NCBI GenBank assembly: GCA_040414485.1
Contig: JBEDUK010000010.1
Location: forward strand, 30,147-94,146
Length of the DNA: 64,000 nucleotides
Direction: 5' to 3'
Source: Actinomycetota bacterium
GTDB taxonomy: Bacteria; Actinomycetota; UBA4738
The translations under genes and the position numbers were made by a program. The notes under the pieces were generated by a model that searched no databases, was not told the DNA's origin, and saw only the letters and a program-made list of their open reading frames with translations. Numbering within the stretch: position 1 is the first letter of the stretch; the number at the start of each line of letters is the position of its first letter. Shown piece after piece: positions 21,802 to 46,628 of this stretch.

Positions 21802-21826
21802 CCTCGCCCCCCTCCGACGCGATGTC

Positions 21827-23500
21827 TTAGAACAGCCCCACGATGCGTCCGTCCGCATCGATGTCGACCTTGGTGAACGCCGGATCCCTCCCGAGGCCCG
21901 GCATCCGCTGCATGTCGCCGCACAGCGCGACGACGAATCCGGCACCGGCACTTGGAACGACCCCCCTGACCGGCAGCCGAAATCCCCGTGGGCGGTTCAG
22001 CAGGGTCTGATCGTGCGAGAGTGAGAGGTGGCTCTTCGCCATGCAGACCGGCACCTTGCCGAACCCGAGCGCCTCCATCCGTTCGATGTCCCGCTCCGCC
22101 TGCGGGAGGTAGTCCACGCCGTCGGCGCCGTACACGCGTGTGGCGATCGCCTCGATCTGCTCCTTCACCGGCGTCCCGTCCGGCGTCAAGCGGGCGAAGC
22201 TGTTCGGCTGCTTCACCGCGTCGAGGACCGCCTCGGCGAGCTCGACCGCGCCGTCGCCGCCGCGCGAGAAACCGTCGTTCAGCACGACGCGTTCGGCGCC
22301 GACCTCGGTCGCCAGCTCGTCCACCAGCCGGAGCTCCTCGTCCGTGTCGGTCGGGAAGCGGTTGATCCCGACGACGCACGGGATGCCGTACTGCTTCACG
22401 ATCTCGATGCACGCGGCGAGGTTCTCCGAGCCCCGTTTCACCGCGTCCAGGTCCCCGTTTCCGAGGTCGTTGAACGCCACGCCTCCGTGGGACTTGAGCG
22501 CCCGCACGGTGGCCACCAGCACCGCCGCGCTCGGAGCGAAACCGCCTGCGCGGCAGACGATGTCGCAGAACTTCTGGAACCCGAGGTCGGCGGCGAACCC
22601 GGCCTCGGTCACGACGATGTCCGCGAGCTTCAGCGCCACCCGGTCCTCGATGATCGAGTTGTTCGCGTGCGCGATGTTGCCGAACGGCCCCGCATGGATC
22701 AGCACCGGCTGTCCCTCGAGCGTCTGCACGAGATTCGGCTTGACGGCTTCCTTCATGATGGCGGCCATCGCTCCGGCCACTCGCAGGTCCTCCGCCGTCA
22801 CCGGCGTACCGTCGGCCGTCTCGGCCACCACGATCCGCCCGAGCCGTGCGCGAAGGTCGGCCAGGTCGGATGCCAGCGCCAGCACGGCCATGATCTCCGA
22901 CGCCGCGGTGATCACGAAGTGGTCGTCACGCGGCACCCCGTGCATCTTCCCGCCCAGGCCGTCGGTGACGTTGCGGAGCTGCCGGTCGTTCACATCCAGC
23001 GTGCGCGGCCACGTGATCGACTCCAGCGTGATCCCGAGCGGGTTTCCGTGGAAGATCGATGCGTCCATCGCGGCGGACAGCAGGTTGTGCGCCGCGGTGA
23101 TCGCGTGGAAGTCGCCCGTGAAATGGAGGTTGATCTCCTCCATGGGCACGACCTGCGCGTACCCGCCGCCCGTCCCGCCGCCCTTGATGCCGAACACCGG
23201 GCCCATCGACGGCTCTCGCAGGCAGAGCATCACGTTCGCGCCGAGTTTGCCCAGGCCCTGGGTCAAGCCGACGGACGTCGTTGTCTTGCCCTCGCCGGCC
23301 TTGGTCGGCGTGATGGCCGTGGTGATGACGATCTTGCCGTCGGGGCGGTCGCCCAGGCGTTCCAGCACCCGCGCGGCGTCGACCTTCGCCTTCGACCTGC
23401 CGTAGGGCTCGAGCTCGTCCGGGAGCAGGCCGGCATCGCGGCCGACGTCCTCGATCGGACGCAGGACGGCTTCCTGCGCGATCTCGAGGCCCGACTTCAT
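21827..23500 (-). CDS. fhs: formate--tetrahydrofolate ligase
   Basis: Strong FTHFS signature (PTKAGEGKTTTSVGL, GGGYAQVVPMEEINLHFTGDFHAI, HAGPFGNIAHG-like). Confidence 0.9.
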   Translation of the reverse strand: MKSGLEIAQEAVLRPIEDVGRDAGLLPDELEPYGRSKAKVDAARVLERLGDRPDGKIVITTAITPTKAGEGKTTTSVGLTQGLGKLGANVMLCLREPSMGPVFGIKGGGTGGGYAQVVPMEEINLHFTGDFHAITAAHNLLSAAMDASIFHGNPLGITLESITWPRTLDVNDRQLRNVTDGLGGKMHGVPRDDHFVITAASEIMAVLALASDLADLRARLGRIVVAETADGTPVTAEDLRVAGAMAAIMKEAVKPNLVQTLEGQPVLIHAGPFGNIAHANNSIIEDRVALKLADIVVTEAGFAADLGFQKFCDIVCRAGGFAPSAAVLVATVRALKSHGGVAFNDLGNGDLDAVKRGSENLAACIEIVKQYGIPCVVGINRFPTDTDEELRLVDELATEVGAERVVLNDGFSRGGDGAVELAEAVLDAVKQPNSFARLTPDGTPVKEQIEAIATRVYGADGVDYLPQAERDIERMEALGFGKVPVCMAKSHLSLSHDQTLLNRPRGFRLPVRGVVPSAGAGFVVALCGDMQRMPGLGRDPAFTKVDIDADGRIVGLF

Positions 23501-23602
23501 GCCACCGCCGGCGTGGGTCCCATGGAGGCGACAGACTACTCCGGCGGCCGGTGCGACGGACGAGTCGCGGCACGTCGGGCCGCCACAACTTCGAACGCCC
23601 CG

Positions 23603-23686
23603 ATGTGTGGGAAGTGGACAGGTCTCGCTCGCCAACCTGCGGGCTGAGGCGCGCGGCGCGCCGGAGGCATGTGTTCGAAGTGGACA
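23603..23686. promoter_or_regulatory. two copies of an 18-bp motif ATGTGTnnGAAGTGGACA in the divergent fhs / soxD intergenic region (candidate operator sites)
   Basis: Copy 1 at 23603-23620 (atgtgtgggaagtggaca). Copy 2 at 23669-23686 (atgtgttcgaagtggaca). 66 bp apart, inside the 328-bp divergent promoter region. Confidence 0.3.
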
Positions 23687-23828
23687 CGAGCGTCCAATGG
23701 AGACGGGTCCCTTCGCACCCGGCGCCCGGCGTGCAGGCGCCCGGGCGCGGCGGTAAGGTCGGCCCTGCGAGCGGCGGGCTCGCCACGTCGGGGAGCGAGG
23801 ACGAAGGGGCGCGGGAGGGCCCATCCCG

Positions 23829-24098
23829 ATGACGTTCCAGATCCGGTGTCCGAACTGCGGGCTGCGCGACGCCGAGGAGTTCGCCTACGGAGGCGAATCG
23901 ACCACCCGCCCTGGACCCGACGGCAGCGGACAGGACCTCGCCCGCTACGTGTACTTCCGCGAGAACCTCGACGGCTGGCAGACCGAATGGTGGTTCCATC
24001 GCGACGGCTGCCAGAGGTGGTTCGTTGCCGAACGGCACACCATGACGAACGAGATCCGCGCCACCTCCTGGCCGCCCGCGCGCGCGGAGACCCGATGA
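23829..24098 (+). CDS. soxD: sarcosine oxidase delta subunit family protein (SoxD / MgdB-like)
   Basis: MTFQIRCPNCGLRDAEEFAYGGE... is the canonical SoxD N-terminus. Its stop overlaps the next start (ATGA). Confidence 0.85.
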   Translation: MTFQIRCPNCGLRDAEEFAYGGESTTRPGPDGSGQDLARYVYFRENLDGWQTEWWFHRDGCQRWFVAERHTMTNEIRATSWPPARAETR

Positions 24099-27001
24099 CG
24101 GCGGAACGGACGGCGTCGCCGGGGCCGCACGAGACGATCGACCGCGGTGCGGGCGTCACCTTCATGCTCGACGGCAGGCGAATGCGGGGATACGCCGGCG
24201 ACACGGTCGGATCGGCCATGGCCGCGGCCGGCGTGACGATCACCGGCCGGTCGTTCAAGTACCACCGGCCCCGCGGCCTGATGTGCATGGCTGGCGCCTG
24301 CCCCAACTGCCTGGTCCGGATCGACGGCGTGCCGAACGTCCGCGCCTGCTCCGAACTGCTCCGAGACGGGATGAAGGTCGAGCGCCAGAACGGCCGGCCG
24401 AACGTCGAGCGGGACGTGACCGGGATCGTCGATCGCTTCTCCTTCGCCCTCCCCGCGGGCTTCTACTACAAGGTCTTCCACCGGCCGAAGTGGGCATGGC
24501 CGCGGGTGGAGCCGATGATCCGGCGCCTCTCGGGGCTCGGCGTCGTTCCCGACGAGCCGGACCACGGCGAGAAGGAACGGGTGAGCCTCCATCCGGACGT
24601 GCTGGTGGTGGGCGCCGGGGCGGCGGGACTCTGCGCCGCGGTCGAGGCGGCCCGCGCCGGAGCGACGACCGTCCTTCTGGAGGAGCGGGGCGAGATCGGC
24701 GGCGCGCTGCTGTATTCGACCGAGTGGGCGGCCGATCCGTTCGCCACAGCCGGCGCCGGCGGGGCGGCATCGGAGAGCCTTCCCGGACCCGCGCTGGCCA
24801 CGCGCCTCTCGGCGTCCGCGGACGTTGCCGGCGTCCGAATCCTGGGCGGGACGCCGGCGTTCGGCGTGTTCGACGGTCCGCTGATCGCCGCGGCTTCGGA
24901 GAACGCGCTCTACCGGATCCGCCCGGCCCGCACGATCTTCGCCACGGGCGCCGTCGAACAACCGGCGGTCTTTCCGGACAACGACCTGCCCGGCGTGATC
25001 CTCGGCGGCGCGGCCGACCGCCTCCTCAACCGCTTCGGCATCCTCCCGGGAAGGCGGGTCGTGGTGCTGGCATCGGGCCCTGCGGCCTATCGGACGGCGT
25101 CCTCGCTCGCGGCCGCCGGCGCGCAGGTCACCGTGGTCGATCCCGACCCGGGTGCCGCGGCATCGAAGGTCGCCGGCGTGACGGTGAAGGCCGGCAGCAC
25201 CATCCGCCGCGCGATCGGCAGGCGCCACGTCACCGCCGTCGAGGTCGGCCACCCGGACGAGTCCGGTTCGAAGCTCGACTGCGACCTCGTGGTCGTCGCG
25301 GGCCACGCGTCGCCCACCACCAACCTGCTGGCGCAGGCCGGGGCGACGATCGAATGGGACCAGGACGCCGGCGCGTTCCTCGCAACCGGCCTCCCCGCCG
25401 GCGTCTTCGCGGCCGGCGAGGTCACCTGCGTCCGCGACCTGGAATCGGCGATCGTGCAGGGACGGCTTGCCGGCCTCGAGGCCGCGCGTTCGCTCGGTCT
25501 GGGAGATGCACGGACCGAGGCGGCCGTCGCAGCCCTTCGCGCACAGGCTCCGTCGGGACCCCAGGAGGCGACGCTTCCGCCGGCGCGCATCCCGGCGGAC
25601 GGCAAGCAGTTCGCCTGCGTCTGCATGGACGTGACCTACAAGGAGCTGCGCTTCGCCGTGAAGGAGGGGTTCGATTCGATCGAGCTCCTGAAGCGCTACA
25701 CCACGCTGTCGATGGGGCCGTGTCAGGGCAAGTCGTGCCTGTCGGCGTCGATCCGTCTGTGCGCGCTGGCAACCCACCGAAGCATCGAGGAGACCGGTGC
25801 GCCGACGGCGCGTCCGCCGTGGGTGGGCGTCCCCATGTCCGTCCTCGCCGGCGAGGAGCTCGTTCCCCGCCGGGAGAGCGCCATGCAGGACCTTCACGCC
25901 GACCTCGGGGCCACGTTCATGTGGGCGGGCGACTGGCGCCGCCCCCATCACTACATCGAGCCGGCGGCCGAGGCCCGCACCGTGCACCAATCGGTCGGCG
26001 TGATCGACGTCAGCACGCTCGGAAAGGTGCGGGTGAAGGGTCCGGACGCGGCGGCGTTCCTGGAGCGTCTCTATCCGAACATGTACGCCGACCTTGCGGT
26101 GGGGCGCGTCCGCTACGGAGTCATGTTGAACGACTCGGGCGTCATCCTGGACGACGGCACGATCGTCAGGCTGGCTGACGATGAGTACTTCGTCACGACG
26201 ACCACGGGCAACGCGGCGTCGATGATCCGGTGGATGGAGTGGTGGCTGGCCGTGTGGCAGATGGACGTGCTCATGGCGAACGTCAGCTCCCAGTTCGCGG
26301 CGATCAACGTCACCGGTCCGCGGTCGCGCGAGGTCATGTCGCGGCTGACCGAGCTGGATGTCTCGGCGGAGGGCATGCCGTACCTTCGGGCCGCGCAGGC
26401 CGAGGTCGCCGGCGTGCCCGCGCTGATCCTCCGGATCGGGTTCACCGGCGAGCTCGGGTTCGAGCTCCACGTGCCGGCGGCGTACGGGCAGTACCTCTGG
26501 CAGGAGATCCTCGGCGCCGGCCAGGCCGCGGGGATCCCGGTGCAGCCGTTCGGCCTGGAGGCGCAGCGGATCCTTCGGCTCGAGAAGCAGCACATCCTCG
26601 TGGGGCAGGACACCGACGCGCTGTCGGACCCCTACGGCGTGGGCATGCCGTGGATCGTGAAGATGGCGAAGCCGGACTTCCTCGGACGGCGGGCCCTGGC
26701 CGAGATGGCCAACGGGGACGCGGCGCCGTCGCCCGCCGACCGCCTGGTCGGGTGGGCGGCGCCGGGAACCGTCGTGCCGCCGGAGGGCGCCGGGATCGTG
26801 CAGGGAGGCACCTGGGTCGGGCGGGTCACCTCGGCTCGCCGCAGCGACGCCGTCGGGAGCGTGATCGGGATGGGCTGGGTGCCGGCGTCGCTCGCCGAGG
26901 AGAACCGGGAGATCTCGATCCATTTCGGCGGGCAGACGCTCGCCGCGAACGTTCGCCTGAAGCCCTTCTACGACCCCGAGGGCGCGAGGCTCCGGTCATG
27001 A
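24095..27001 (+). CDS. soxA: sarcosine oxidase alpha subunit family protein (SoxA / MgdC-like)
   Basis: 969 aa. N-terminal 2Fe-2S-like and NAD/FAD-binding regions (DVLVVGAGAAGLCAAVEAARAG) and a C-terminal GcvT-like folate domain (GFTGELGFELH). Confidence 0.9.
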   Translation: MTAERTASPGPHETIDRGAGVTFMLDGRRMRGYAGDTVGSAMAAAGVTITGRSFKYHRPRGLMCMAGACPNCLVRIDGVPNVRACSELLRDGMKVERQNGRPNVERDVTGIVDRFSFALPAGFYYKVFHRPKWAWPRVEPMIRRLSGLGVVPDEPDHGEKERVSLHPDVLVVGAGAAGLCAAVEAARAGATTVLLEERGEIGGALLYSTEWAADPFATAGAGGAASESLPGPALATRLSASADVAGVRILGGTPAFGVFDGPLIAAASENALYRIRPARTIFATGAVEQPAVFPDNDLPGVILGGAADRLLNRFGILPGRRVVVLASGPAAYRTASSLAAAGAQVTVVDPDPGAAASKVAGVTVKAGSTIRRAIGRRHVTAVEVGHPDESGSKLDCDLVVVAGHASPTTNLLAQAGATIEWDQDAGAFLATGLPAGVFAAGEVTCVRDLESAIVQGRLAGLEAARSLGLGDARTEAAVAALRAQAPSGPQEATLPPARIPADGKQFACVCMDVTYKELRFAVKEGFDSIELLKRYTTLSMGPCQGKSCLSASIRLCALATHRSIEETGAPTARPPWVGVPMSVLAGEELVPRRESAMQDLHADLGATFMWAGDWRRPHHYIEPAAEARTVHQSVGVIDVSTLGKVRVKGPDAAAFLERLYPNMYADLAVGRVRYGVMLNDSGVILDDGTIVRLADDEYFVTTTTGNAASMIRWMEWWLAVWQMDVLMANVSSQFAAINVTGPRSREVMSRLTELDVSAEGMPYLRAAQAEVAGVPALILRIGFTGELGFELHVPAAYGQYLWQEILGAGQAAGIPVQPFGLEAQRILRLEKQHILVGQDTDALSDPYGVGMPWIVKMAKPDFLGRRALAEMANGDAAPSPADRLVGWAAPGTVVPPEGAGIVQGGTWVGRVTSARRSDAVGSVIGMGWVPASLAEENREISIHFGGQTLAANVRLKPFYDPEGARLRS

Positions 27002-27714
27002 GCGACGCCGCCGCAGTGGCGACCTTCGAGCCGGTCATGCGTTCGCCGCTGCACCGTGCGCACGAGCGGCTCGGGGCCACGTTCGGGCGGGACGGCGAGT
27101 GGGAGTACCCGGCGGCCTACGCGGGCGAAACCGGCGAGGCCGGCCTCCGGGCCGTCGCCGAGGGGGTCGGCGTGGCCGACGTCACCGCCCGGGGAAAGGT
27201 GGATCTCCGCGGCGCGATCGGCGACCTGTTCGCGCGGATCGCCAGGACCAGCGAGGGGTGGGAGCCGGGGACCATCGTCCCCATCGAACCGGCGCCGTCC
27301 GAGGAGCATCCGGGACTGATCGCCCCGATCTCCGACCGCTGGGCGATCCTGTTCTGCCCGCCGGCATCGCTCGACACACGGATGGAGGAACTGGACCGGC
27401 CGGCCGGCGGCGCCTCGGCCATGGTCACCGAGATCTCGTCGCAGTACGTGGGCGTCGCCCTGACCGGACCGAGGACGTTCGATCTGCTGGAGCGCCTCAC
27501 CGCATTCGACCTGCGCGAACTGGAGCCTGACGCGTGCGTCGCCACGAGAGCGCTGGAACTGACCGCGATCATGCTGCGGCGCGGGCCGGTCGTCGAACTG
27601 TGGGTCAGCGCGTCCTCGGCGCGGTACGCGTGGGAGACGGTTCTGCACGCGGGGGCGCGCCTGGGCGCGGCGCCGGTCGGCCGGGACGCGCTGTCGACGC
27701 TGGGGTGGTGGTGA
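26998..27714 (+). CDS. soxG: sarcosine oxidase gamma subunit family protein (SoxG / MgdD-like)
   Basis: Start ATGA-overlaps the soxA stop. Size (238 aa) and position are consistent with SoxG. Confidence 0.75.
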   Translation: MSDAAAVATFEPVMRSPLHRAHERLGATFGRDGEWEYPAAYAGETGEAGLRAVAEGVGVADVTARGKVDLRGAIGDLFARIARTSEGWEPGTIVPIEPAPSEEHPGLIAPISDRWAILFCPPASLDTRMEELDRPAGGASAMVTEISSQYVGVALTGPRTFDLLERLTAFDLRELEPDACVATRALELTAIMLRRGPVVELWVSASSARYAWETVLHAGARLGAAPVGRDALSTLGWW

Positions 27715-27719
27715 GCGGG

Positions 27720-28943
27720 ATGCCCGCACCGATCGGACCCCGCTACTTCAAGCCCTGGAAGATGTGGCGCCGGCACGACCTGAAGCCGTCGTACGACTGC
27801 GTGATCGTGGGCGGCGGCGTCCACGGCCTGGGCATCGCCTACGAGATGGCGAAGCGCGGCTTCAAGAACGTCGCGGTCCTGGACCAGTCGTACATCGGCG
27901 CGGGCGGCAGCGGGCGGAACACCACGATCATCCGCGCGAACTACCGGACACCCGAGGGCGTTGCGTTCTACCGCGAGTCGCTTCGGCTCTACAAGCACCT
28001 GGGTCAGGAGCTCGACTACAACCTGCTGCTGTCCGAACAGGGCCACCTGACCCTCGCTCACAACGAACGCGGCGTCATCACGATGCACGAGCGCGCGGAG
28101 GTCAACAAGACGCTCGGCGTGGACAGCCGCGTGATCTACGCGGAGGAGATCCGCGGGCTCTGCTCGTGGCTGGACCTCTCGGACAAGCCGCCGTTCCCGA
28201 TCATGGCGGCGCTGTTCCACCCGCCGGGCGCGGTGCTCCGCCATGACGCCGTCGTGTGGGCGTACGCGCGGGCGGCCGACCGGCTCGGCGTGGAGATCCA
28301 TCCGTACACCCAGGTGACGGGCATTCACGTCGACGGCGGCAAGGTCACCGGCGTCCGCACCCCGCAGGGCGACATCGCCACCCCGATGGTGATCGGCGCG
28401 GTGGCCGGCTGGTCGAGCGAACTGGCCAGGATGGCGGGGGTCGAACTGCCGATCACCACGCATGTGCTGCAGGCGTTCGTCACCGAACCCCTGAAGCCGT
28501 TCCTGCACACGATCATCGTGTCGGGAACCCTGCACGTGTACATCTCGCAGACCGACCGGGGCGAGGTGCTGATCGGCTCCGAGATCGAGCCGTACACGAC
28601 CTACAACCAGGGCTCGACGCTCACCTTCCTGGAGGCGACCACCGCGCATTCGCTCGACCTCATCCCGGCGCTGGGCCGCGTGAAGGTGATGCGGTCGTGG
28701 GGCGGCCTGTGCGACATGACGCCGGACTACTCACCGATCATGGGAGTCACATCCGTCGAAGGGTTCCTGCTCGACTGCGGCTGGGGCACGTACGGCTTCA
28801 AGGCAGCCCCGATCAGCGCGGTGACCATGGCCGAACTGGCCGTGACTGGGAAGGTCCCCGACCTGATCGCGCCGTTCGAACTGGAGCGCTTCTGGCGCCG
28901 GCAGCCGGTGAGCGAGATCGCCGCCGCCGCCGTCTCGCACTGA
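27720..28943 (+). CDS. soxB: sarcosine oxidase beta subunit family protein (SoxB / MgdA-like), FAD-dependent
   Basis: CVIVGGGVHGLGIAYEMAKRG (FAD binding) and the covalent-FMN region typical of SoxB. Confidence 0.9.
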   Translation: MPAPIGPRYFKPWKMWRRHDLKPSYDCVIVGGGVHGLGIAYEMAKRGFKNVAVLDQSYIGAGGSGRNTTIIRANYRTPEGVAFYRESLRLYKHLGQELDYNLLLSEQGHLTLAHNERGVITMHERAEVNKTLGVDSRVIYAEEIRGLCSWLDLSDKPPFPIMAALFHPPGAVLRHDAVVWAYARAADRLGVEIHPYTQVTGIHVDGGKVTGVRTPQGDIATPMVIGAVAGWSSELARMAGVELPITTHVLQAFVTEPLKPFLHTIIVSGTLHVYISQTDRGEVLIGSEIEPYTTYNQGSTLTFLEATTAHSLDLIPALGRVKVMRSWGGLCDMTPDYSPIMGVTSVEGFLLDCGWGTYGFKAAPISAVTMAELAVTGKVPDLIAPFELERFWRRQPVSEIAAAAVSH

Positions 28944-29108
28944 CGTCGTCAGGTTCGGCCCGTCACCGGATCGCGACGCAAGCGGCTCCTTCCCTGATCG
29001 CATGCCGTCGAATCGAGCGCGGCGTGGGCGCCGAGCCGGCGAGGACCGCGGTCCGTGCCTCCTCGTGGATAGACTGCGAGTGCGCCACCTGTGAGGGGAG
29101 GTGAGTCC

Positions 29109-31064
29109 ATGGCGAAGCAGCCGTTGGTTCGATTGACCCATCCCTGGGTCCGCGACACGAAGGGGTCCGAACTGCGCCCCGCGACGTGGGACCAGGCGCT
29201 CGACCGCGCAGCGGCCGGATTGAGCGCGGCCACCGAGCGGAACGGAGGCGACGGGGTCGGGATCTTCTCCTGCTCCAAGGCCACCAACGAGATGAACTTC
29301 GTCGCGCAGAAGTTCGCGCGTCAGGTGCTGGGTTCGAACAACATCGACAGCTGCAACCGCACCTGACACGCTCCCTCGGTGGTCGGTCTGGCCACCGCGT
29401 TCGGAGCCGGAGGCGGCACCAGTTCATACGAGGAGGTCGAGAACACCGACCTCATCATCCTGTGGGGGTCGAACGCGCGCGAGGCGCATCCGATCTTCTT
29501 CCACCATGTCCTGAAGGGGATCCGGAACGGCGCGCGGCTGTTCGTGGTGGATCCGCGACGCACCGTCAGCGCCGAATGGGCCGACCTGTGGCTGGGCATC
29601 GACGTCGGGACCGACATCGCGCTGTCGAACGCGATCGCCCGCGAGATAATCGTCAATCAGCTTTACCATCAGCCGTTCGTCGAGCTCGCCACGACCGGGT
29701 TCGACGAATACCGCGACTCGGTCATGGACTGGACGCTCGAGCGCGGCGCACAGGAGACCGGCGTGCCGGCGGACGTGATCCGGGAGGTCGCCCACGCCTA
29801 CGCGAAGGCCGACCGCGCCATGATCTGCTGGACGCTCGGGATCACCGAGCACCACAACGCGGTCGACAACGTCCTGGCGCTGATCAACCTGGGACTGCTG
29901 ACCGGACACGTCGGCACCTACGGCAGCGGGCTCAATCCGCTGCGCGGTCAGAACAACGTCCAGGGCGGCGGCGACATGGGCGCCATCCCGAACAAGCTCC
30001 CGGGGTTCCAGGACATCGAAACCGACGCCGACGCCCGCGCGCGGTTCGAGGAAGCCTGGGGAACGCCGATCGTTCCGAAGTCCGGCTGGCACCTGAGCCA
30101 GATGTTCGAGGCCATGGACCGCGGCGACCTCACAGCGCTGTACGTGATCGGCGAGAATCCGGCCACGTCAGAGGCGGATGCGCAGCACGCGCGGCACCTG
30201 CTGGAGACCCGAGACACGCTGATCGTCCAGGACATCTTCATGACGCAGACGGCGCAACTGGCCGACGTGGTGCTGCCGGCGGCGAACAGCTCGTTCGAAT
30301 CCGACGGCACGGTGACGAACAGCGAGCGCCGCACCCAACGCGTGCGCAAGGCGCTCGATCCGCCGGGCGAGGCGCGGGACGACATCTGGATCCTCGCCCA
30401 GCTCGCGAAGCGGCTGGGCTTCGACTGGGGCGACCCCACCGCCGAAGAGGCCTGGGACGAATGCCGTTCGCTCTCCCCCATGCACCGCGGCATGTCGTGG
30501 GCGCGCCTGGAGGAGTTGGGCGGAATCCAGTGGCCCTGCCCCGACGAGTCGCACCCGGGAACGCAGTTCCTCCACGCCCGGCTGTGGGCGGAGGATCCGG
30601 CCGAACAGGGCCCGAAGGCGCCGCTCAGCGTCGTGATCCACGATCCGCCCGTCGACCTGTTGAGCGAGGAGTTTCCAATCCGCCTCACGACGGGCCGACG
30701 GCTGGATTCGTACAACACGGGCGTGCAGAGCGGCATGTACTCCTCGCCGCTGCGGCGCGACGAGGCGATCGAGGTGTCGCCCGAGGACGCGGCGCGCCTC
30801 GGTCTGAGCGAAGGCGAATGCGTGCTGGTGTCGTCGCGCCGGGCGGCGGTCGAGGCGCCGGTCCACGTCGCGGAGACCCTCCGGCCCGGACTGGCGTTCA
30901 TGACGCTGCACTTTCCGGACCAGGTGGACACGAACGCGCTGACGATCGACGCCACCGACCCGAAGTCCGGCACGGCGGAGTTCAAGGCGACGGCGGTGCG
31001 GATCGACAAGCTGCCGTCGAAGGACGCAGAGCTGATCTCACAGGGCGAGGGATCGCACCGCTGA
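29109..31064 (+). CDS. fdhA: formate dehydrogenase catalytic (molybdopterin) subunit, FdhF-like, with an in-frame TGA at 29364-29366 read as selenocysteine; lacks the N-terminal Fe-S domains
   Basis: The two track ORFs 29091..29366 and 29379..31064 are in the same frame and separated only by TGA. The translation ...NNIDSCNRT-U-HAPSVVGL aligns with E. coli FdhF ...NNVDCCARV-U-HGPSVAGL. Downstream it matches NPLRGQNNVQGGGDMGAIP. ATG at 29109 with a GGGGAGG RBS. Confidence 0.8.
29367..29405 (+). other. putative bacterial SECIS element (hairpin CGGUGG-UCGGUCUGG-CCACCG)
   Basis: The stem begins 10 nt after the UGA. The apical loop contains GGUCUG, as in the E. coli fdhF SECIS loop. Confidence 0.45.
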
Positions 31065-31074
31065 TGGAGGCGAC

Positions 31075-32961
31075 GTGGACCTCCATCTGACGGATGCGAC
31101 CGCGACCGACGAGGAGCGGGCCGCGGTCGACGCCGTGCTCGGGCCGCCCGCCACCGGCTGGGTGGGGGGCGACCGCCTGCACGGCGACACGCACCGCGTC
31201 GCGCGTGGCGGCAGGGCCGCCCGCGACCAGCGGCACCTCCTGCTGCCCGTGCTGCACTCGGTGCAGGGCCGCGTGGGCTGGGTCAGCCCGGGCGCGCTGA
31301 ACTACGTCTCGCAGCGGTTGAGCGTGCCTCCCGCGGAGGCCTATGGCGTCGCGTCGTTTTACGCGATGTTCTCGACCAAGCCCCGAGCACGGGCGGTTCT
31401 GCACGCGTGCGACGACATCGCCTGCCGGATCAACGGGGCCGAGCAGGTCATCGCACGGCTCCGCGACGCGTTCGGTCCGGAAGGCGAGCCGGACGCGACG
31501 GGCAACCGGACCTGGCTGCGGAGCCCCTGCCTCGGCGTGTGCGAGGCCGCCCCGGCCGTCCTGTTGCAGCAAGCCTCCGATCGACCGTTCGAACTGACCA
31601 TCGCGCCGGCGTCGAACGGCAACCTCGAGCCGTTCGTGTCGACCGGACCGGGCACATGGACGGGGGTCGGCTCGGACGCTTCGGCCGCGCCGCAGACGCA
31701 GGACGCGACCGCCCGAGTGTCGCTTCGACTGCTCCGGCGGATCGGGCTCGTCGATCCGACGTCGCTGGACTCGTACCGGGCTCACGGCGGGTACGAAGCG
31801 CTTCGCGAGGCGGTCCGGCTCGGCCCAGGCGGCGTGATCCGCGAGGTCAAGGACGCGAAGCTGCTCGGCCGGGGCGGCGCCGCGTTTCCCACCGGGGTGA
31901 AGTGGGAGGCCGTCGCCCAGCAACCGGTCAGGCCGCATTACCTCGTCTGCAACGCCGACGAATCGGAGCCCGGTACGTTCAAGGACCGTGTCGTGATGGA
32001 GAACGATCCGTTCGCCCTGATCGAGGCGATGACCATCGCCGGCTACGCGACCGGCTCGGAGCACGGATACATCTACATCCGCGGCGAGTACCCGCAGGCG
32101 CACGCGTTCCTGGCCTCCGCGATCGAGCAGGCCCGCCGGCACGGGTTCCTGGGCGACGACGTGATGGGCCAGGGATTCGCATTCGACATCGAACTGCGGC
32201 GCGGCGCCGGCGCCTACATCTGCGGCGAGGAGACGGCGCTGTTCAACTCGATCGAGGGCAAGCGAGGCGAGCCCAGGAACAAGCCGCCGTTCCCGGTCAC
32301 GCATGGCCTGTTCGGCAAACCGACCGGGATCAACAACGTGGAAACGCTGATCAACGTGCTCGAGATCATGCGGATCGGCGGCCCCGCATATGCGGCCATC
32401 GGCACCCCGGACTCGACCGGGCCCCGGCTCTTCTGTCTGTCCGGCTGCGTCGCACGCCCGGGGCTGTACGAGGTGGAATTCGGTGCGACCCTGGGCGACG
32501 TGCTGTCGCTGGCGGGCGGGATCCGGGACGGCAAGCGGCTGCAGGCGATCCTGTTGGGCGGCGCCGCCGGCGCCTTCGTCGGCCCGGACGCGATGGACCT
32601 CCCGCTCACGTTCGAGGCGACGCGCGCGGCGGGCGTCACGCTCGGGTCGGGCGTCGTCATGGCGTTCGACGAAACGGTCAACCTGCCTGACATTCTCGTC
32701 CGAGTCGCGCAGTTCTTCCGGGACGAATCGTGCGGCCAGTGCGTCCCGTGCCGGGTGGGAACGGTTCGCCAGGAGGAGCTCCTGGCCAGACTGGCGGCCG
32801 GCGCGCCCCGTGGCTCGCGCGACGACGAGATCGCCCTTCTGAACGACATCGCCCAGGCCATGCGGGACGCGTCCATCTGCGGGCTCGGGCAGACCGCCTC
32901 CGGCGCGATCCAATCGGCGATCCGGGCGTTCGATCTCTTCGCCGTGGAGGCAGGGTCATGA
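31075..32961 (+). CDS. fused NuoE-like (2Fe-2S) / NuoF-like (FMN, NAD, 4Fe-4S) diaphorase subunit of NAD-dependent formate dehydrogenase (FdsG-FdsB fusion)
   Basis: The N-terminal part is thioredoxin-like 2Fe-2S (CDDIACRINGA ... CLGVCEAAP). The C-terminal part is NuoF-like (GRGGAAFPTGVKWE, YLVCNADESEPGTF, ESCGQCVPCRVG). GTG start with a GGAGG RBS. Confidence 0.85.
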   Translation: MDLHLTDATATDEERAAVDAVLGPPATGWVGGDRLHGDTHRVARGGRAARDQRHLLLPVLHSVQGRVGWVSPGALNYVSQRLSVPPAEAYGVASFYAMFSTKPRARAVLHACDDIACRINGAEQVIARLRDAFGPEGEPDATGNRTWLRSPCLGVCEAAPAVLLQQASDRPFELTIAPASNGNLEPFVSTGPGTWTGVGSDASAAPQTQDATARVSLRLLRRIGLVDPTSLDSYRAHGGYEALREAVRLGPGGVIREVKDAKLLGRGGAAFPTGVKWEAVAQQPVRPHYLVCNADESEPGTFKDRVVMENDPFALIEAMTIAGYATGSEHGYIYIRGEYPQAHAFLASAIEQARRHGFLGDDVMGQGFAFDIELRRGAGAYICGEETALFNSIEGKRGEPRNKPPFPVTHGLFGKPTGINNVETLINVLEIMRIGGPAYAAIGTPDSTGPRLFCLSGCVARPGLYEVEFGATLGDVLSLAGGIRDGKRLQAILLGGAAGAFVGPDAMDLPLTFEATRAAGVTLGSGVVMAFDETVNLPDILVRVAQFFRDESCGQCVPCRVGTVRQEELLARLAAGAPRGSRDDEIALLNDIAQAMRDASICGLGQTASGAIQSAIRAFDLFAVEAGS

Positions 32962-33947
32962 GCGCGGTCCCGCTGGCTCCGCCGATGCGGCTGATCGACC
33001 TCACGATCGACGGCGAGGCCGTCCGGGTCCCCGAGGGCGCGACGCTGCTGCAGGCGTGCCGCGCGCAGGGCATCGACACGCCGACGCTCTGCTACCTGGA
33101 GAGCCTCACGCCGGTGAACGTGTGCCGCGTCTGCGTCGTGGAGGTCGAGGGCTCGCGAACGCTCGTGCCCGCCTGTTCGCGGAAAGCCGAGCCCGGCATG
33201 GTCGTGCACACCGACAGCGAGCGCGTGCGCCTGTCCAGGCGCGTCGTCCTTGAGTTCCTCGGATCCTCGGTCGATCTCTCACTGGCCGGCCCGACCGTGC
33301 CGGACGGCGATCTGGCCAGGTACGCGGCCGCGTACGGCGCCGAACCGTCCCGGTACGGGACGCCGAACGGCCACGCGGAACACCCGGACCGCGACCACGC
33401 CGGGCCGGGCCACCATTACGCGCCGCGTGCCGTCGAAACGGCGACGGTCGCCCAGCCGGTCAAGGTCGACAACGACCTGTACGTGCGCGACTACGCCAAG
33501 TGCGTGCTCTGCTACAAGTGCGTGGAGGCATGCGGGACCGACGCGCAGAACACCTTCGCCATCGCGGTCGCGGGCCGCGGCTTCGACGCGCGGATCTCCA
33601 CCGAGTACGCCGTGTCCCTGCCCGACAGCGCTTGCGTCTACTGCGGGAACTGCATCGGCGTGTGTCCGACCGGCGCGCTGATGTTCAAGTCCGAACACGA
33701 CATGCGCGCGGACGGCACGTGGGATGAGGACGAACAGACCGTCACCACCACGATCTGCCCGTACTGCGGGGTCGGGTGCAACCTCGAGGTCCACGTGCAG
33801 AACAACTCGATCGTGAAGGTCACGAGCCCCATGGACCACAGCGTGACCAGCGGGCACCTCTGCATCAAGGGCCGCTTCGGCTTCCAGTACGTGCAGAGCC
33901 GCCGCGGCCCGGACGCGGTCGCCTCCGAGGACGGCGGCTCAACCTAG
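32958..33947 (+). CDS. formate dehydrogenase alpha-subunit N-terminal Fe-S module (2Fe-2S + 4Fe-4S ferredoxin domains + MopB N-terminal 4Fe-4S domain), encoded as a separate gene
   Basis: NuoG-like N-terminus (CYLESLTPVNVCRVCVVEV). Two 4Fe-4S ferredoxin motifs (CVLCYKCVEAC, CVYCGNCIGVCP). It then ends with CPYCGVGCNLEVHVQNNSIVKVTSP...CIKGRFGFQY, which aligns with FdhF residues ~8-60. Its start ATGA-overlaps the previous gene. Confidence 0.8.
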   Translation: MSAVPLAPPMRLIDLTIDGEAVRVPEGATLLQACRAQGIDTPTLCYLESLTPVNVCRVCVVEVEGSRTLVPACSRKAEPGMVVHTDSERVRLSRRVVLEFLGSSVDLSLAGPTVPDGDLARYAAAYGAEPSRYGTPNGHAEHPDRDHAGPGHHYAPRAVETATVAQPVKVDNDLYVRDYAKCVLCYKCVEACGTDAQNTFAIAVAGRGFDARISTEYAVSLPDSACVYCGNCIGVCPTGALMFKSEHDMRADGTWDEDEQTVTTTICPYCGVGCNLEVHVQNNSIVKVTSPMDHSVTSGHLCIKGRFGFQYVQSRRGPDAVASEDGGST

Positions 33948-36465: not shown

Positions 36466-37497
36466 ATGAGAGGGCAAGGGAGCGCGATGGACGGCGTCTG
36501 GTTCCTGGTGGCGGCCGCGGTGAGCCTGGCCACGAGCTGGGTGCTGGTCACACGACTCGAACGCATCGGCGAGGCGGCCGGCCTCGCCGAAGGCCTCCTC
36601 GGGCTCCTCGCGGCGCTGGCGGCGGACGTCCCCGAGATCACCTCGGCCTTCACCGCGCTCGCTCACCACGAGCACGCCGTGGGCGCCGGCGTGGTCATCG
36701 GATCGAACGTCTTCAACCTCGCCGCCCTCATCGGCCTCGGGGCGGTGGTCGCCGGGCTGGTCCGGCTGCATCGGCGCGTGGTCGTGCTCGGTGGGCTCTT
36801 CGCCATGCCGATCGCGATCGTGTGCCTCCTGGCGGTGGTCGGGGTCCTCGGAGCCGTCCCGGCGTTCATCCTCTCGGCCGTCATGCTCGCGGTGTACGCG
36901 ATGGTCCTGGCCGAGGGTCGAGGACGGCCGGGGCGCCTGGGGCGGCTCGCCGTGCCCGGTTGGCTGGACGGCTCGATCCGTACGGCGGTGGCGGAGGAGG
37001 AGCAGGAGCTGCTCGAAGCGATCCATCCCAGGCGTGGGACGGTCGTGGACGGAGTGGTCGCGGCGGTCGCCCTGCTGGTCGTGCTGGCGGCGAGCGTCGC
37101 CATGGAGCGGTCCGCGTCGGCGTTCGGCGCGGCGCACGGATGGTCCGAGATCGTGATCGGCGGCCTCGTCCTCGCGGCCGCCACGAGCCTGCCGAACGCG
37201 GTGGCGGGCGTCTACCTGGCGTCGAAGGGGCGCGGCGCGGCGGCGCTCAGCACGACCTTGAACAGCAACAGCATCAACGTGACGATCGGGCTCCTCCTGC
37301 CCGCCATGTTCCTCGGGCTGGGTGCCACGTCGACCGCCGCGGCGCTCACGACGGCCTGGTACGTGGGCTTGACGATCCTGGTGCTCGCGGCCGCCTACGT
37401 GCGGCGCGGGATCGGGCGTCCGATCGGCCTGGTGATCGTCGGCACCTACGCGGCCTTCGTCGCGGTGCTGCTCGGCGCCGGCCCCTCAGTGAGGTGA
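36466..37497 (+). CDS. CaCA-family sodium/calcium exchanger membrane protein
   Basis: Two alpha-repeat regions (GSNVFNLAALIG ... SLPNAVAGVYLASKG) and about 10 TM helices. True start possibly at 36487. Confidence 0.75.
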   Translation: MRGQGSAMDGVWFLVAAAVSLATSWVLVTRLERIGEAAGLAEGLLGLLAALAADVPEITSAFTALAHHEHAVGAGVVIGSNVFNLAALIGLGAVVAGLVRLHRRVVVLGGLFAMPIAIVCLLAVVGVLGAVPAFILSAVMLAVYAMVLAEGRGRPGRLGRLAVPGWLDGSIRTAVAEEEQELLEAIHPRRGTVVDGVVAAVALLVVLAASVAMERSASAFGAAHGWSEIVIGGLVLAAATSLPNAVAGVYLASKGRGAAALSTTLNSNSINVTIGLLLPAMFLGLGATSTAAALTTAWYVGLTILVLAAAYVRRGIGRPIGLVIVGTYAAFVAVLLGAGPSVR

Positions 37498-37944
37498 TTC
37501 GCCGGACGCGACGGCTTTGTCGGCGTCAGCGGTCAGCGCATCCTGCAGGACGTCCCACGCGAGCACCGCGCACTTGATCCGAACCGGGTACTTGACCACG
37601 CCCTTCAGCGCGGCCAGGTCACCCATGGATTCCTCGTCCGGTTCGGCGGCGCCCTCCATGAACGAGCGGAACTCCGACGCCAGGCCGAGCGCCCGGTCCA
37701 CGGGCTGGCCGGCCACCGCTTCGGTCATCATGGACGCGCTCGCCTGACTGATCGAACATCCGGAACCCTCGAACGCGACCCCTTCCAGCACGCCGTCCCG
37801 CACCTGCGCGTGGACCGTGATCTCGTCCCCGCACAGCGGGTTGTTCTTCGAACAGCTGAACTCGGCCCCCGGCAGGTCTCGCTTGTTCCGGGGGTTCTTG
37901 TAGTGGTCGAGGATGACCTCCTTGTACAGCTCCTCAAGCGCCAA
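37486..37944 (-). CDS. sufU: SUF system Fe-S scaffold protein SufU (NifU/IscU-like)
   Basis: NPLCGDEITVH ... GSGCSISQASASMM is the SufU signature. Confidence 0.85.
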   Translation of the reverse strand: MALEELYKEVILDHYKNPRNKRDLPGAEFSCSKNNPLCGDEITVHAQVRDGVLEGVAFEGSGCSISQASASMMTEAVAGQPVDRALGLASEFRSFMEGAAEPDEESMGDLAALKGVVKYPVRIKCAVLAWDVLQDALTADADKAVASGESPH

Positions 37945-39190
37945 AGAACGCCTCCGCCTTCATGAGCGACGCCACCAATGCATCCACCTCGTCGTGGGAG
38001 TTATACACGTAGAACGACGCACGGGCGGTCGCCGGAACCCCCAAGAGGCGCATCAGCGGCTGCGCGCAGTGGTGCCCGGCGCGGATGCAGACGCCGTCGG
38101 TGTCCAGGACCTGCGCCAGGTCGTGCGGATGGATGTCGCGGAACCAGAACGACACCGCGCCGCCGCGCTTCTCCACGTCGTGCGGGCCGAAAACGACCGC
38201 GCCGATCTCCTCCAGGCGCCGGGTCGCGTACGCGGTGATCTCCTTTTCGTGCTGCCGGACGTTCTCCATCCCCAGGTCCGTCAGGTAGCGCACCGCGGTC
38301 GCCAGGCCGACCTCCTCGGCGATGTTCATCGTTCCGGCTTCGAACTTCCAGGGGATCTCCTTGAACGTCGACTCCTCGAGCTCGACCCGCATGATCATCT
38401 CGCCGCCGCCCAGGAACGGGTCCATCTCCTCCAGGCGCTCGCGCTTGCCGTAGAGCCCACCGGAGGCGGTCGGTCCGAGCATCTTGTGGCCGCTGATCGT
38501 GAGGAAGTCGACGTCCAGCGCCGTGACGTCGACCGGCACGTGCGGCACCATCTGCGCGCCGTCGACCAGGATGGCCGCGCCCGCGGCGTGGGCGGCGTCG
38601 GCCAGCGTGCGGATCGGCGGCAGCGTGCCCAATACGTTCGACATGCCCGTGACGCACACCAAGCGGGTCCGTTCGTTGATCAGACCGTCCTCCAAATCCG
38701 TGAGGTCGATCGACCCGTCCTCGGCAAGGGGGATGAACCGGAGCTTCGCTCCGGTGGCCTGCGCCGCGAACTGCCACGGCACCAGGTTCGAATGGTGCTC
38801 GAGGACCGACAGCAGGATCTCGTCGCCCTCGCGGAGGATCTTCCGCGCGAAGCCGTACGAGACCAGGTTCGTCGACTCGGTCGTGCCGCGGGTGAAGATC
38901 ACCGTCGCGGGGTCCGGCGCGCCGATGAACCGCGCGAGCGTCGCCCGGGCGTCCTCGTACATGGCCGTGGCCTCTTCGGCCAGTGTGTACACGCCGCGGT
39001 GGATGTTCGCGTTGTGCCGCTCGTAGAAGTCGTTCACCGCGTCGAGCACCTGGCGCGGCTTCTGACTCGTGGCGGATGAGTCCAGGTACACGAGCGGCAC
39101 GGTCCCATCCGGCCCGACGCGCCGTTCCAGGATCGGGAAGTCCTTCCGGATCCGTTCGATGTCCAGGCTTCGGCTCACCGTCACGCTCAC
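37934..39190 (-). CDS. sufS: cysteine desulfurase SufS
   Basis: PLP-binding SGHKMLGPTASGGLYG and the active-site RAGHHCAQPL. Confidence 0.9.
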   Translation of the reverse strand: MSVTVSRSLDIERIRKDFPILERRVGPDGTVPLVYLDSSATSQKPRQVLDAVNDFYERHNANIHRGVYTLAEEATAMYEDARATLARFIGAPDPATVIFTRGTTESTNLVSYGFARKILREGDEILLSVLEHHSNLVPWQFAAQATGAKLRFIPLAEDGSIDLTDLEDGLINERTRLVCVTGMSNVLGTLPPIRTLADAAHAAGAAILVDGAQMVPHVPVDVTALDVDFLTISGHKMLGPTASGGLYGKRERLEEMDPFLGGGEMIMRVELEESTFKEIPWKFEAGTMNIAEEVGLATAVRYLTDLGMENVRQHEKEITAYATRRLEEIGAVVFGPHDVEKRGGAVSFWFRDIHPHDLAQVLDTDGVCIRAGHHCAQPLMRLLGVPATARASFYVYNSHDEVDALVASLMKAEAFFGA

Positions 39191-39202
39191 GGCCCCATCC
39201 TC

Positions 39203-40009
39203 CTACTGCTGCGGCTCCGCCTCCACGCCCAGTTCGGCCCGGAGACCCTCGTAGCCCTTCTGCTCCAGCTCGTGTGCCAGTTCCGGCCCGCCCGAGAGCA
39301 CGATCCGGCCGCTCATCATCACGTGGATGTGGTCCGGGGTGATGTAGTTCAGGATCCGCTGGTAGTGCGTGATGATCAGCACGCCCAGATCGGGCCCGAT
39401 CAGCCGGTCCACGCCCTGCGCCACGGCCTTGAGCGAGTCGATGTCCAGCCCGCTGTCGGTCTCGTCCAGGATCGCGATCGACGGCTCGAGCACCGCCAGT
39501 TGCAGGACCTCGTTCTTCTTCTTCTCCCCGCCGGAGAACCCCTGGTTGACGTAGCGGCGGACCATCTCGTCGTCCACGCCGAGCAGGTCCATCTTCTCCT
39601 TCATGAGCTTGCGGAACGCGAGCGCGCTGGTGGTCTCGCCCTTCACGGCGTTGTACGCCGTCCGGAGGAAGTTCACCACCGACACGCCCGGGATCTCGGT
39701 CGGGTACTGGAAGGCGAGGAACAGCCCCAGTTGCGCGCGCTTGTCCGGCGCCAGCGAGGTGATGTCCTCGCCACGGAACCGGATCTCGCCGGCCGTGACC
39801 TTGTAGGTGGGGCGGCCCATGAGGACGTTCGCCAGGGTGGACTTCCCCGACCCGTTCGGCCCCATCAGCGCGTGAACCTGCCCCTGTGTGATCGTCAGGT
39901 CGATCCCCTTCAGGATCTCCTTGCCCTCCACTTCCGCGTGGAGGCCGCGGATCTCCAGGGTCGCCGCACCCTCCTTCGTCTCGCGCATCGTCGCTTCGGT
40001 CGTCGCCAT
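39203..40009 (-). CDS. sufC: Fe-S cluster assembly ATPase SufC
   Basis: Walker A GPNGSGKST, ABC signature, and typical SufC length. Confidence 0.9.
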   Translation of the reverse strand: MATTEATMRETKEGAATLEIRGLHAEVEGKEILKGIDLTITQGQVHALMGPNGSGKSTLANVLMGRPTYKVTAGEIRFRGEDITSLAPDKRAQLGLFLAFQYPTEIPGVSVVNFLRTAYNAVKGETTSALAFRKLMKEKMDLLGVDDEMVRRYVNQGFSGGEKKKNEVLQLAVLEPSIAILDETDSGLDIDSLKAVAQGVDRLIGPDLGVLIITHYQRILNYITPDHIHVMMSGRIVLSGGPELAHELEQKGYEGLRAELGVEAEPQQ

Positions 40010-40018
40010 GTCTGTCGT

Positions 40019-40345
40019 CTACTCCTTGCCCATCTCGATCAGGATCGCGTCGCCTTCGACCTTCACCGGGAAGACCGGCACCGGCTTGGTGGCCGGCAGC
40101 GCCCTCGGCCGGCCCGTCTCCAGGTCGAACATCGAGCCGTGCTTCGGGCACTCGATCGTGCCGTCCTCTGCGTCCACCTCGCCGTCCGAGAGGTGGTAGT
40201 GCTCGTGGGAGCAGATGTCGCCAACCGCCCGGAACACGCCGTCGCCCAGGTTGACCAGCGCGACCTCGCTGCCGTCGACCAGCACGTGACGGGCCTCGCC
40301 CTCGGGGACGTCGCCCACCCGCGCCACCTCAACCAGGTCACCCAT
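40019..40345 (-). CDS. Rieske [2Fe-2S] ferredoxin (suf-associated)
   Basis: CSHEHYHL ... CPKHGSMFD is the Rieske CxH...CxxH motif. It lies between sufD and sufC. Confidence 0.8.
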   Translation of the reverse strand: MGDLVEVARVGDVPEGEARHVLVDGSEVALVNLGDGVFRAVGDICSHEHYHLSDGEVDAEDGTIECPKHGSMFDLETGRPRALPATKPVPVFPVKVEGDAILIEMGKE

Positions 40346-41693: not shown

Positions 41694-41929
41694 TGGATGC
41701 CTCGCTTGCCGTCGTCTCGGGCCGGCGCTCGAGCCGGCGCGATCGGTGGTCCTGCCTGCGGTGCGCCCCTCGCCCTCGCCCTCGCGCGGTTCCGCATCGA
41801 AATCCTATCAGCGAAGTAGGAATTAGCTCCCGCTCAGCGTCCACGGCTCCTCCGTGGAGGCGTCCGCTTGAACCGAACGCTCGCGAAGCGTCACACGGGT
41901 GGGGTCAAAGGGGTTATCAATTCGTGCTC

Positions 41930-42430
41930 ATGCAGCCCATCTCGACGTCGGCCGGCCCTCGAGCGGCGTTCGACGAGTTCTTCCACGACCACTACCTACC
42001 CCTCGCGAAGGCCATGTACCTGGTGACCGGGGATCGGGCAGACGGCGAGGACGTCGCCCAGGAGGCGATGGCGCGCGTCTACGAGAGATGGGACCGCGTC
42101 GCACGCATGGAATCGCCGAGCGGCTACCTGTACCGAACCGCCATCAACCTGCAGAGGAAGCGAGTCCGCTCGTCCAGGCGCCAGCGTCCGCTCCCCCTGC
42201 CCACCGGAGTCCCGGATCCGGCGGAGACGGTCGATCGACGGGAGCGGATCCGTGCGGCCATCGGGGCGCTCACGGCAGAGCAGCGTGAGGCGCTCATCCT
42301 GGTCGAGTTCCTCGGACTCGATTCGACGCAGGCGGCCGCCGCCCTCGGCACGTCGTCGGAGTCGGTTCGGGCTCGCCTGCATCGGGCGCGCACGACGTTG
42401 CGCGACCAGTTCGGAGGCAGCGATGTCTGA
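41930..42430 (+). CDS. ECF (sigma-70 family) RNA polymerase sigma factor
   Basis: Region 2 (FHDHYLPLAKAMYLVTGDRADGEDVAQEAMARVYERW ... LYRTAINLQRKR) and region 4 (LTAEQREALILVEFLGLDSTQAAAALG...). Confidence 0.75.
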   Translation: MQPISTSAGPRAAFDEFFHDHYLPLAKAMYLVTGDRADGEDVAQEAMARVYERWDRVARMESPSGYLYRTAINLQRKRVRSSRRQRPLPLPTGVPDPAETVDRRERIRAAIGALTAEQREALILVEFLGLDSTQAAAALGTSSESVRARLHRARTTLRDQFGGSDV

Positions 42431-43535: not shown

Positions 43536-43536
43536 A

Positions 43537-46570: not shown

Positions 46571-46628
46571 CCGTGTCTGACACCGGCTCGGCTGACGGTG
46601 GGTCAATCTCCCGTGCGACACTCGCATC

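Follow-up and report, generated by a model that had tools for sequence, protein, structure and literature searches.

Can the alpha subunit of a formate dehydrogenase (FDH) be divided in such a way that its catalytic core and the iron-sulfur (Fe-S) domain nearest to its pterin cofactor are made as separate proteins? The question is raised by a 64,000-nt stretch of contig JBEDUK010000010.1 from an Actinomycetota bacterium (the whole stretch is called the window below), in which three FDH genes, here named A, B and C, follow one another on the plus strand. A first-pass annotation of this DNA had proposed that the two halves of one alpha subunit are encoded here by separate genes, in the order catalytic part, fdsGB fusion, Fe-S part. 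Pfam domains and alignments to known enzymes bear this out, and indicate that A, B and C together encode one NAD-type (nicotinamide adenine dinucleotide) metal FDH whose alpha subunit is split over A and C.

An alpha subunit divided between two genes

The G+C content of the window is about 70%, and the window therefore contains many long spurious open reading frames (ORFs). Filtering the ORFs of the flagged interval by third-position GC yielded three consecutive plus-strand genes:

29109..31064, plus strand: gene A, FDH alpha catalytic core; 651 codons including one UGA; Pfam domains Molybdopterin and Molydop_binding
31075..32961, plus strand: gene B, NuoE-NuoF fusion; 628 aa; Pfam, NCBIfam and PDB matches
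32958..33947, plus strand: gene C, NuoG-like Fe-S module; 329 aa; Pfam domains Fer2_4, a 2x[4Fe-4S] ferredoxin domain and Molybdop_Fe4S4
33738..33896, plus strand: part of gene C encoding Molybdop_Fe4S4; residues 261-313, CPYCGVGC...CIKGRFGF; PF04879, 3.3e-20

These coordinates and domains agree with the earlier gene calls, except that gene A had been taken for an uninterrupted frame and its in-frame TGA (29364-29366) overlooked. The predicted masses are 71.0 kDa for A, 66.4 kDa for B and 35.1 kDa for C; of the values expected earlier (~69, ~68 and ~35 kDa), the last stands and the first two shift slightly.

Pfam finds no Molybdop_Fe4S4 domain in gene A, and gene C ends directly after its own. 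The combination of Fe4S4, Molybdopterin and Molydop_binding domains is therefore not found on A, and is assembled only when A and C are taken together. The two proteins tile the alpha subunits of known enzymes exactly. Residues 13-313 of C align to residues 25-304 of Rhodobacter capsulatus FdsA (E 5.7e-50), the best structural match of C, and residues 8-632 of A align to residues 308-931 of the same protein. Similarly, residues 8-638 of A align to Escherichia coli FdhH 61-691, and residues 8-643 to 63-716 of FdhF from the hydrogen-dependent CO2 reductase (HDCR) of T. kivui. In the 672-position NCBIfam model TIGR01591 (FDH alpha, equivalog level), C residues 265-314 cover positions 1-50 and A covers positions 53-672. 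With positions 1-52 missing, gene A by itself reaches 627.1 bits and falls short of the cut-off of 666.25; the next family, NasC, scores 389 bits. The FdsA, FdhH and TIGR01591 alignments thus place the cut within 1-2 residues of where it had first been described.

The catalytic residues are present in gene A. Its active-site segment, CNRT-UGA-HAPSV, consists of the selenocysteine (Sec) or cysteine ligand followed by a histidine (U86-H87) and aligns with the active sites of FdhF and FdsA, and the active-site arginine is present in the motif NPLRGQNNVQG. In 55 loci related to this one, the start of A lies 4-10 residues before a conserved RLTxPxVR motif, and is preceded by a stop codon or by sequence that looks non-coding. 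For C there is no curated NCBIfam model, with the best match reaching 160 bits against a cut-off of 765, and the source annotations of its homologs are generic ("2Fe-2S iron-sulfur cluster-binding protein", "HndD", "YjgC").

An unusual layout of this kind could in principle reflect an error of assembly, or alpha fragments that are decaying relics; beyond the unusual layout itself, nothing speaks for either. To examine conservation we used a scan of one genome per species, which retrieved 80 loci, and added five loci from exact look-ups. By record title, the 80 loci comprise 30 from Actinomycetota, 29 from Chloroflexota, 13 from Acidobacteriota and three unclassified, with one locus each from Binatia, Dormibacterota, Vulcanimicrobiota, Armatimonadota and Saccharimonadales. 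The first-pass annotation had called for a check on whether the split is kept in related genomes, and it is: 67 of the 85 loci, which represent at least 5 phyla, have genes A, B and C on one strand and in this order. Another 13 loci have B-C with no A found upstream (10 of these have less than 2.5 kb of upstream sequence), and the remaining five have C only (three with fewer than 200 bases upstream). No order other than A-B-C occurs among the 85 loci.

Gene A of the window is 75-80% identical to its counterparts in Actinomycetota loci and 66-71% to those of other loci. The sequences of the genes point the same way as their order. The 16 Cys ligands of the Fe-S clusters of C are invariant in 86 of 86 homologs, and so is Lys304, the equivalent of FdhH Lys44. 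In a comparison of the window with L001, its closest relative, the ratio of nonsynonymous to synonymous substitution rates (dN/dS) comes to 0.18 in A, 0.24 in B and 0.20 in C, values by which all three genes are judged to be under purifying selection. Homologs of C number in the thousands. More than 120 clusters (at 90% identity) consist of stand-alone homologs, and the best 120, with lengths of 306-392 aa and identities of 71-100%, without exception end in PF04879 and carry no Molybdopterin domain. Misassembly and relic status, both raised earlier as ways in which the split might prove illusory, are contradicted by the recurrence of the layout in 67 independent assemblies from many studies, by the invariant ligands and by a dN/dS of about 0.2. 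No second copy of A, B or C exists within the 64-kb window. We therefore regard an artefact or a relic as next to impossible.

The in-frame UGA of gene A

If gene A is intact, its frame has to be read through a TGA codon. Two features bear on this:

29364..29366, plus strand: in-frame TGA of gene A, at the position of the molybdenum (Mo) ligand; probable selenocysteine codon
29377..29397, plus strand: hairpin resembling a selenocysteine insertion sequence (SECIS), 8-bp stem with GGUCU loop, from the minimum-free-energy fold

The codon lies within DSCNRT-TGA-HAPSV, at the Sec/Cys-His position through which FdhH and FdsA bind their metal. In all 58 related loci that cover the site, the homologous codon is TGA and never TGC or TGT. 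In more than 50 loci, tblastn alignments continue through the TGA without a change of frame, and the reading frame of the 85 codons on its 5' side is likewise kept in more than 50 loci. For the related locus L004, the NCBI annotation continues past the TGA to a product of 643 aa.

The hairpin starts 11 nt after the UGA, so that a UGA at the catalytic Cys/Sec position is followed directly by a SECIS-like element, as in selenoproteins. Across 54 distinct sequences, 85.9% of the hairpin cells are paired, as compared to 24-78% for slid controls. Pair 18-30 of the hairpin is CG in 41 sequences and GC in 13, a compensatory change that is synonymous on both sides. The only Rfam match in the region is to SECIS_3 (29361-29419), a weak one whose 17.6 bits (E 0.19) stay below the gathering score of 63.

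Two other fates of the codon were considered. The UGA might act as a stop, leaving a 561-aa protein that begins at the GTG at 29379 and lacks the metal ligand; or it might be read as cysteine by a suppressor tRNA, a possibility with precedent in the tRNA-Cys(UCA) that recodes Sec codons to Cys in some bacteria (PMC5389517). Gene callers indeed cut gene A at the TGA, and neither the window nor 73 related loci yielded a tRNA-Sec gene, in a search that did not extend to selA, selB and selD. Neither fate would account for 85 codons kept in frame upstream of the TGA in more than 50 loci, for a TGA that is never replaced by TGC or TGT, or for a hairpin that carries compensatory changes at the spacing of known bacterial SECIS elements. 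We consider both fates, taken together, very unlikely. Because the TGA is invariant, the hairpin covaries and the alignments continue in frame through the codon, the UGA of gene A very probably encodes Sec.

The 64-kb window holds no tRNA gene of any kind. In the related locus L001, ARAGORN reported a "tRNA-???" with a two-base anticodon (8331-8408, minus strand); it lies inside the coding sequence of gene C and is almost certainly a false positive.

Proposed enzyme and its known relatives

Gene B supplies the remaining part of the enzyme. Its domains are, in order, 2Fe-2S_thioredx (NuoE), followed by Complex1_51K, SLBB and NADH_4Fe-4S (NuoF); NCBIfam models nuoF_fam and NuoE match it, as do the PDB structures of FdsB, HoxF and Nqo1. 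Protein B is accordingly predicted to be an NAD+ diaphorase that binds flavin mononucleotide (FMN), one [2Fe-2S] and one [4Fe-4S] cluster. It ends at residue 628, shortly after NADH_4Fe-4S (540-619), and carries no extra Fer4 domain. The NuoF-type subunits of electron-bifurcating Bfu (HydABC-like) enzymes carry additional C-terminal ferredoxin-type clusters, and the lack of such a domain in B argues against a bifurcating subunit of the HydB type. An N-terminal extension of about 45 aa precedes the NuoE domain of B (residues 1-48, window 31075-31220), and most related loci conserve it from residue 1 onward.

Protein C carries 4+4+4+4 Cys ligands, corresponding to one [2Fe-2S] and three [4Fe-4S] clusters including that of the MopB Fe4S4 domain. 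The motif His-x3-Cys-x2-Cys-x5-Cys is absent from C, and the region where it would lie is free of Cys in 81 of 86 homologs. In the R. capsulatus enzyme this motif binds cluster A4, which is off the electron path and at the dimer interface (PMC7171172).

On these features, A, B and C in all likelihood make up a soluble, NAD+-linked, Sec-containing FDH of three polypeptides with a Mo- or tungsten (W)-bis-pterin cofactor. SelB would recode the UGA of A at the hairpin just downstream of it, and formate would be oxidised at the Sec-ligated Mo or W in A. Electrons would pass from the pterin to the [4Fe-4S] cluster of the Fe4S4 domain at the C-terminal end of C, and since this domain lies on C it would have to dock in trans onto A, completing the MopB fold. 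From there, the electrons would be relayed within C by its two ferredoxin-type [4Fe-4S] clusters and its [2Fe-2S], and would reach the NuoF part of B, with its [4Fe-4S] and FMN, where NAD+ would be reduced. The first 60 residues of FdhH reportedly (Boyington et al., 1997) belong to structural domain I, to which later parts of the chain also contribute. The cut would then run through a structural domain, which implies an obligate, tight complex of A and C.

Several observations weigh against this reading. Besides the missing tRNA-Sec, no FdhD/NarQ gene is present anywhere in the 64-kb window. An AlphaFold model of C alone, built on a 25-sequence alignment, is poor (mean predicted local distance difference test score 52.6, predicted template modelling score 0.47). 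All of the relatives found are metagenome-assembled genomes. In many Chloroflexota loci, among them L006, L010, L015, L053, L054, L058 and L066, A lies 0.7-3.6 kb away from B-C, with unrelated genes in between. Finally, two Chthonomonadaceae contigs (L002, 6001-6945; L068, 6001-6942) carry a homolog of C that is 70-73% identical and has unrelated genes around it; neither A nor B is found in the 6 kb that flank it on each side. The Chloroflexota spacing and these orphan homologs indicate that strict co-expression is not universal. As for the content of the spacer, that of L066 (2238-3977) holds a methyltransferase-like and an RlpA-like gene on the opposite strand; the two are not kept in other loci, and a conserved extra gene between A and B in Chloroflexota was thus rejected.

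Among characterised enzymes, MeFDH1 (Fdh1AB) of Methylorubrum extorquens AM1, a tungsten enzyme (PDB 7E5Z, 7VW6), comes close in composition. Its beta subunit resembles Nqo1/2 and carries FMN, [4Fe-4S] and [2Fe-2S] on one chain, and its alpha subunit binds one [2Fe-2S] and three [4Fe-4S], the His-ligated fourth cluster being absent (PMC10869683); this inventory is identical to the set predicted for A, B and C. The NuoE-NuoF fusion of gene B had at first been listed as unusual. The fusion is present, but it has a precedent in MeFDH1, whose diaphorase is likewise a single fused chain (PMC10869683; 7e5z_B), and like the cluster studied here MeFDH1 is without an FdsD subunit. In the PDB alignments A corresponds to 7e5z_A 371-986, C to 7e5z_A 212-340 and B to 7e5z_B 189-563. 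The differences are that the MeFDH1 alpha subunit is a single chain of 989-995 aa, whereas here a cut behind the Fe4S4 domain divides it into two chains; that its ligand to W is Cys436, whereas the ligand codon here is UGA; and that the N-terminal [2Fe-2S] part of C is closer to R. capsulatus FdsA than to MeFDH1.

The FdsABG(D) enzymes of R. capsulatus and Cupriavidus necator (PDB 6TGA, 6VW7) share the wiring from MopB core through NuoG-like Fe-S module to NuoF/NuoE, and the domains of B and C reproduce their NuoG-like module and NuoE/NuoF diaphorase with its FMN/NAD site. Unlike the enzyme proposed here, however, they have FdsA as one chain of 958 aa, FdsG and FdsB as separate chains, Cys386 as the metal ligand, an FdsD subunit, and the additional His-ligated cluster A4 at the dimer interface (PMC7171172), which is missing in C. 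No small FdsD-like gene was found between or beside A, B and C.

The closest relative of the catalytic half is of another kind, a stand-alone Sec-type FdhF that adjoins fdhD and is represented by locus L088. It is 52% identical to A over the full length, has UGA at the same position, and shares with A an identical NNIDSCNRT-U-HAPSV motif. It differs in keeping its own Fe4S4 domain on the same chain, in a 137-aa piece before the Sec codon, and in that no NuoEF or NuoG-like genes adjoin it at L088. This type is frequent, with Bacillus sp. ISL-41, Ammoniphilus oxalaticus and Evansella vedderi among its named members.

MopB enzymes spread over several polypeptides have precedents in FwdB/FwdD and in complexes of the HylABC-FdhF2 type. 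In the formylmethanofuran dehydrogenase FwdB/FwdD the cut separates the Molybdopterin domain from Molydop_binding, and the catalytic FdhF of HylABC-FdhF2 has retained an Fe4S4 domain of its own; to our knowledge, neither has the pterin-proximal cluster domain on a NuoG-like subunit. A mid-2026 review lists as model NAD+-dependent FDHs only MeFDH1, CnFdsDABG and RcFdsABGD, and shows no split form (PMC13397495), and a survey of the MopB superfamily describes the NAD+-reducing FdsA class as Cys-type (PMC10100899). In the searchable full-text literature we found no description of a split FDH alpha subunit, so that for the alpha split the suggestion of an undescribed architecture holds. As far as the literature was searched, the parts and the chemistry are known and their arrangement is new: the alpha subunit cut after the Fe4S4 domain, this domain joined to a NuoG-like protein, the catalytic gene placed before the diaphorase, and the invariable Sec. 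The enzyme itself most likely works as its FDH relatives do.

Origin, genomic setting and implications of the split

How could such an arrangement have arisen? One route, proposed in the first-pass annotation, is a tandem duplication of an fdsGB-fdsA unit followed by reciprocal deletions, in which A and C would derive from the same fdsA gene. This route predicts the A-B-C order, and A and C indeed tile FdsA exactly. To search for relatives of A we compared the 561 residues after the Sec codon with 1.84 billion representative sequences. The best matches were members of the split family itself (550 aa at 64%; fragments at 56-81%), followed by the protein of locus L088 (P0124) at 52%. The next full-length matches were at most 44% identical, about 900-1400 aa long and extended at the N terminus. 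Among these, P0127 shows the complete canonical series of domains and is encoded 3' of its partner gene; the nearest proteins of about 900 aa are canonical, unsplit alpha subunits encoded after their partner gene, as the duplication route would have it. Against this stands the lack of any intermediate, with a full alpha subunit beside B and a fragment, among the 85 loci, and the greater similarity of A to L088-type FdhF (52%) than to fused types (43%).

The similarity is not uniform along the alpha subunit. The 78 residues of A that follow the junction score on average 83 bits at 52% identity against 116 L088-type proteins, as compared to 60 bits at 40% against 44 proteins with N-terminal fusions. 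The 55-residue Fe4S4 domain of C, just before the junction, shows no such preference (44% for the L088 type, 43% for fused types), and its best individual matches, at 47-54%, are all of fused types. This disagreement between the two sides of the junction also counts against an origin from a single fdsA gene, and we think the duplication route unlikely.

The abrupt change at the junction suggests instead a mosaic of an FdsA-like Fe-S module and an FdhF-like Sec core. An FdsA-like alpha subunit would have lost its catalytic domains to become C, a Sec-type FdhF-like gene would have lost its Fe4S4 domain to become A, and the gene order would result from their juxtaposition. Consistent with this, the Sec motif is identical in A and in L088-type FdhF, C is most like the N terminus of R. 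capsulatus FdsA while A is most like structures of the FdhF type, and A forms a separate transcription unit in many Chloroflexota. However, because the segment before the junction is short, at 55 residues, the evidence is suggestive only, and the differences in bit score are about 10. The same pattern would result if, after a simple fission, the Fe4S4 domain had evolved faster or in a different manner, and the L088 type could itself be a secondary re-fusion. We therefore put forward the mosaic origin tentatively, as a possibility that is itself somewhat doubtful. A need to separate the two halves in order to accommodate Sec was ruled out as a necessity by locus L087, which encodes a Sec-type protein with Fer4, Fe4S4 and Molybdopterin domains on one chain.

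In the window, the gap between A and B is 10 nt. Gene B starts with GTG, with a GGAGG 3 nt upstream of it, and its stop codon overlaps the C start codon ATG in the sequence ATGA. Gene A has its own candidate ribosome-binding site:

29095..29101, plus strand: Shine-Dalgarno-like GGGGAGG, 7 nt 5' of the gene A ATG, read from the sequence

Given the tight spacing and the ATGA overlap, the three genes look like one operon in which B and C would be translationally coupled. A scan for promoters and terminators between 26.9 and 35.2 kb of the window found none. Three ORFs overlap or flank the FDH genes (28256-29104, plus strand; 30982-32913, minus strand; 33638-33943, minus strand). They were rejected as genes, their translations being rich in Arg, Gly and Pro or their frames antisense to real genes, and should not be annotated.

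Directly 5' of the operon (20404-28943) lie genes for a glutamine-synthetase-like protein and a formate-tetrahydrofolate ligase on the minus strand, and for a SoxA-like protein and a DAO oxidase on the plus strand. The SoxA-like protein has 1110 aa, with Fer2_4, Pyr_redox_2, SO_alpha_A3 and GCV_T domains. These neighbours, of one-carbon (C1) or methylated-amine catabolism, recur in L001, and further GCV_T genes are found elsewhere in the window. Since the operon lies in an island of folate-linked C1 catabolism, the physiological direction is probably from formate to CO2, with NADH being formed. In 49 of the 85 loci the cluster is adjoined by a gene for FdhD, a sulfurtransferase that metal FDHs require.

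Two other features of the window were noted. An 810-aa ORF (6401-8833, plus strand) fuses DUF1989 with the aminomethyltransferase domains GCV_T and GCV_T_C. On the minus strand, a block of Suf Fe-S assembly genes (37486-49204) encodes a NifU-like protein, a SufS-like aminotransferase, a SufC-like ABC ATPase and an FeS_assembly_P protein, together with two SufB/D paralogs (40338-41804 and 47094-48575).

A broader claim, to which we give slightly less than an even chance, is that these genes represent a widespread, undescribed class of NAD+-linked FDH in dominant soil phyla such as Actinomycetota, Chloroflexota and Acidobacteriota, with an obligately split MopB subunit, a pterin-proximal [4Fe-4S] cluster supplied in trans and Sec without exception. 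For the mechanism of MopB enzymes, the gene structure suggests that the first electron step out of a Mo/W-pterin site can cross a subunit interface, and that the Fe4S4 domain, with the equivalent of FdhH Lys44, may sit on another polypeptide than the cofactor. For the cell, the split could decouple the maturation of a core that depends on selenium and the molybdenum cofactor from the assembly of the Fe-S and diaphorase parts, and could avoid dead-end Fe-S fragments when read-through of the UGA fails. If the hosts are aerobic, this Sec-FDH would function in air, although enzymes of this kind are usually regarded as oxygen sensitive.

Since gene callers cut gene A at the TGA and the homologs of C carry generic labels, metagenomic surveys that look for intact alpha subunits probably miss or mis-score this enzyme. 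A Sec-using family common in uncultured soil bacteria would tie the turnover of formate and C1 compounds in soil to the supply of selenium. As a natural split-enzyme design it may also be relevant to the engineering of modular CO2/formate catalysts, and the family would be instructive both for the modularity of MopB proteins and for the annotation of FDHs in soil.

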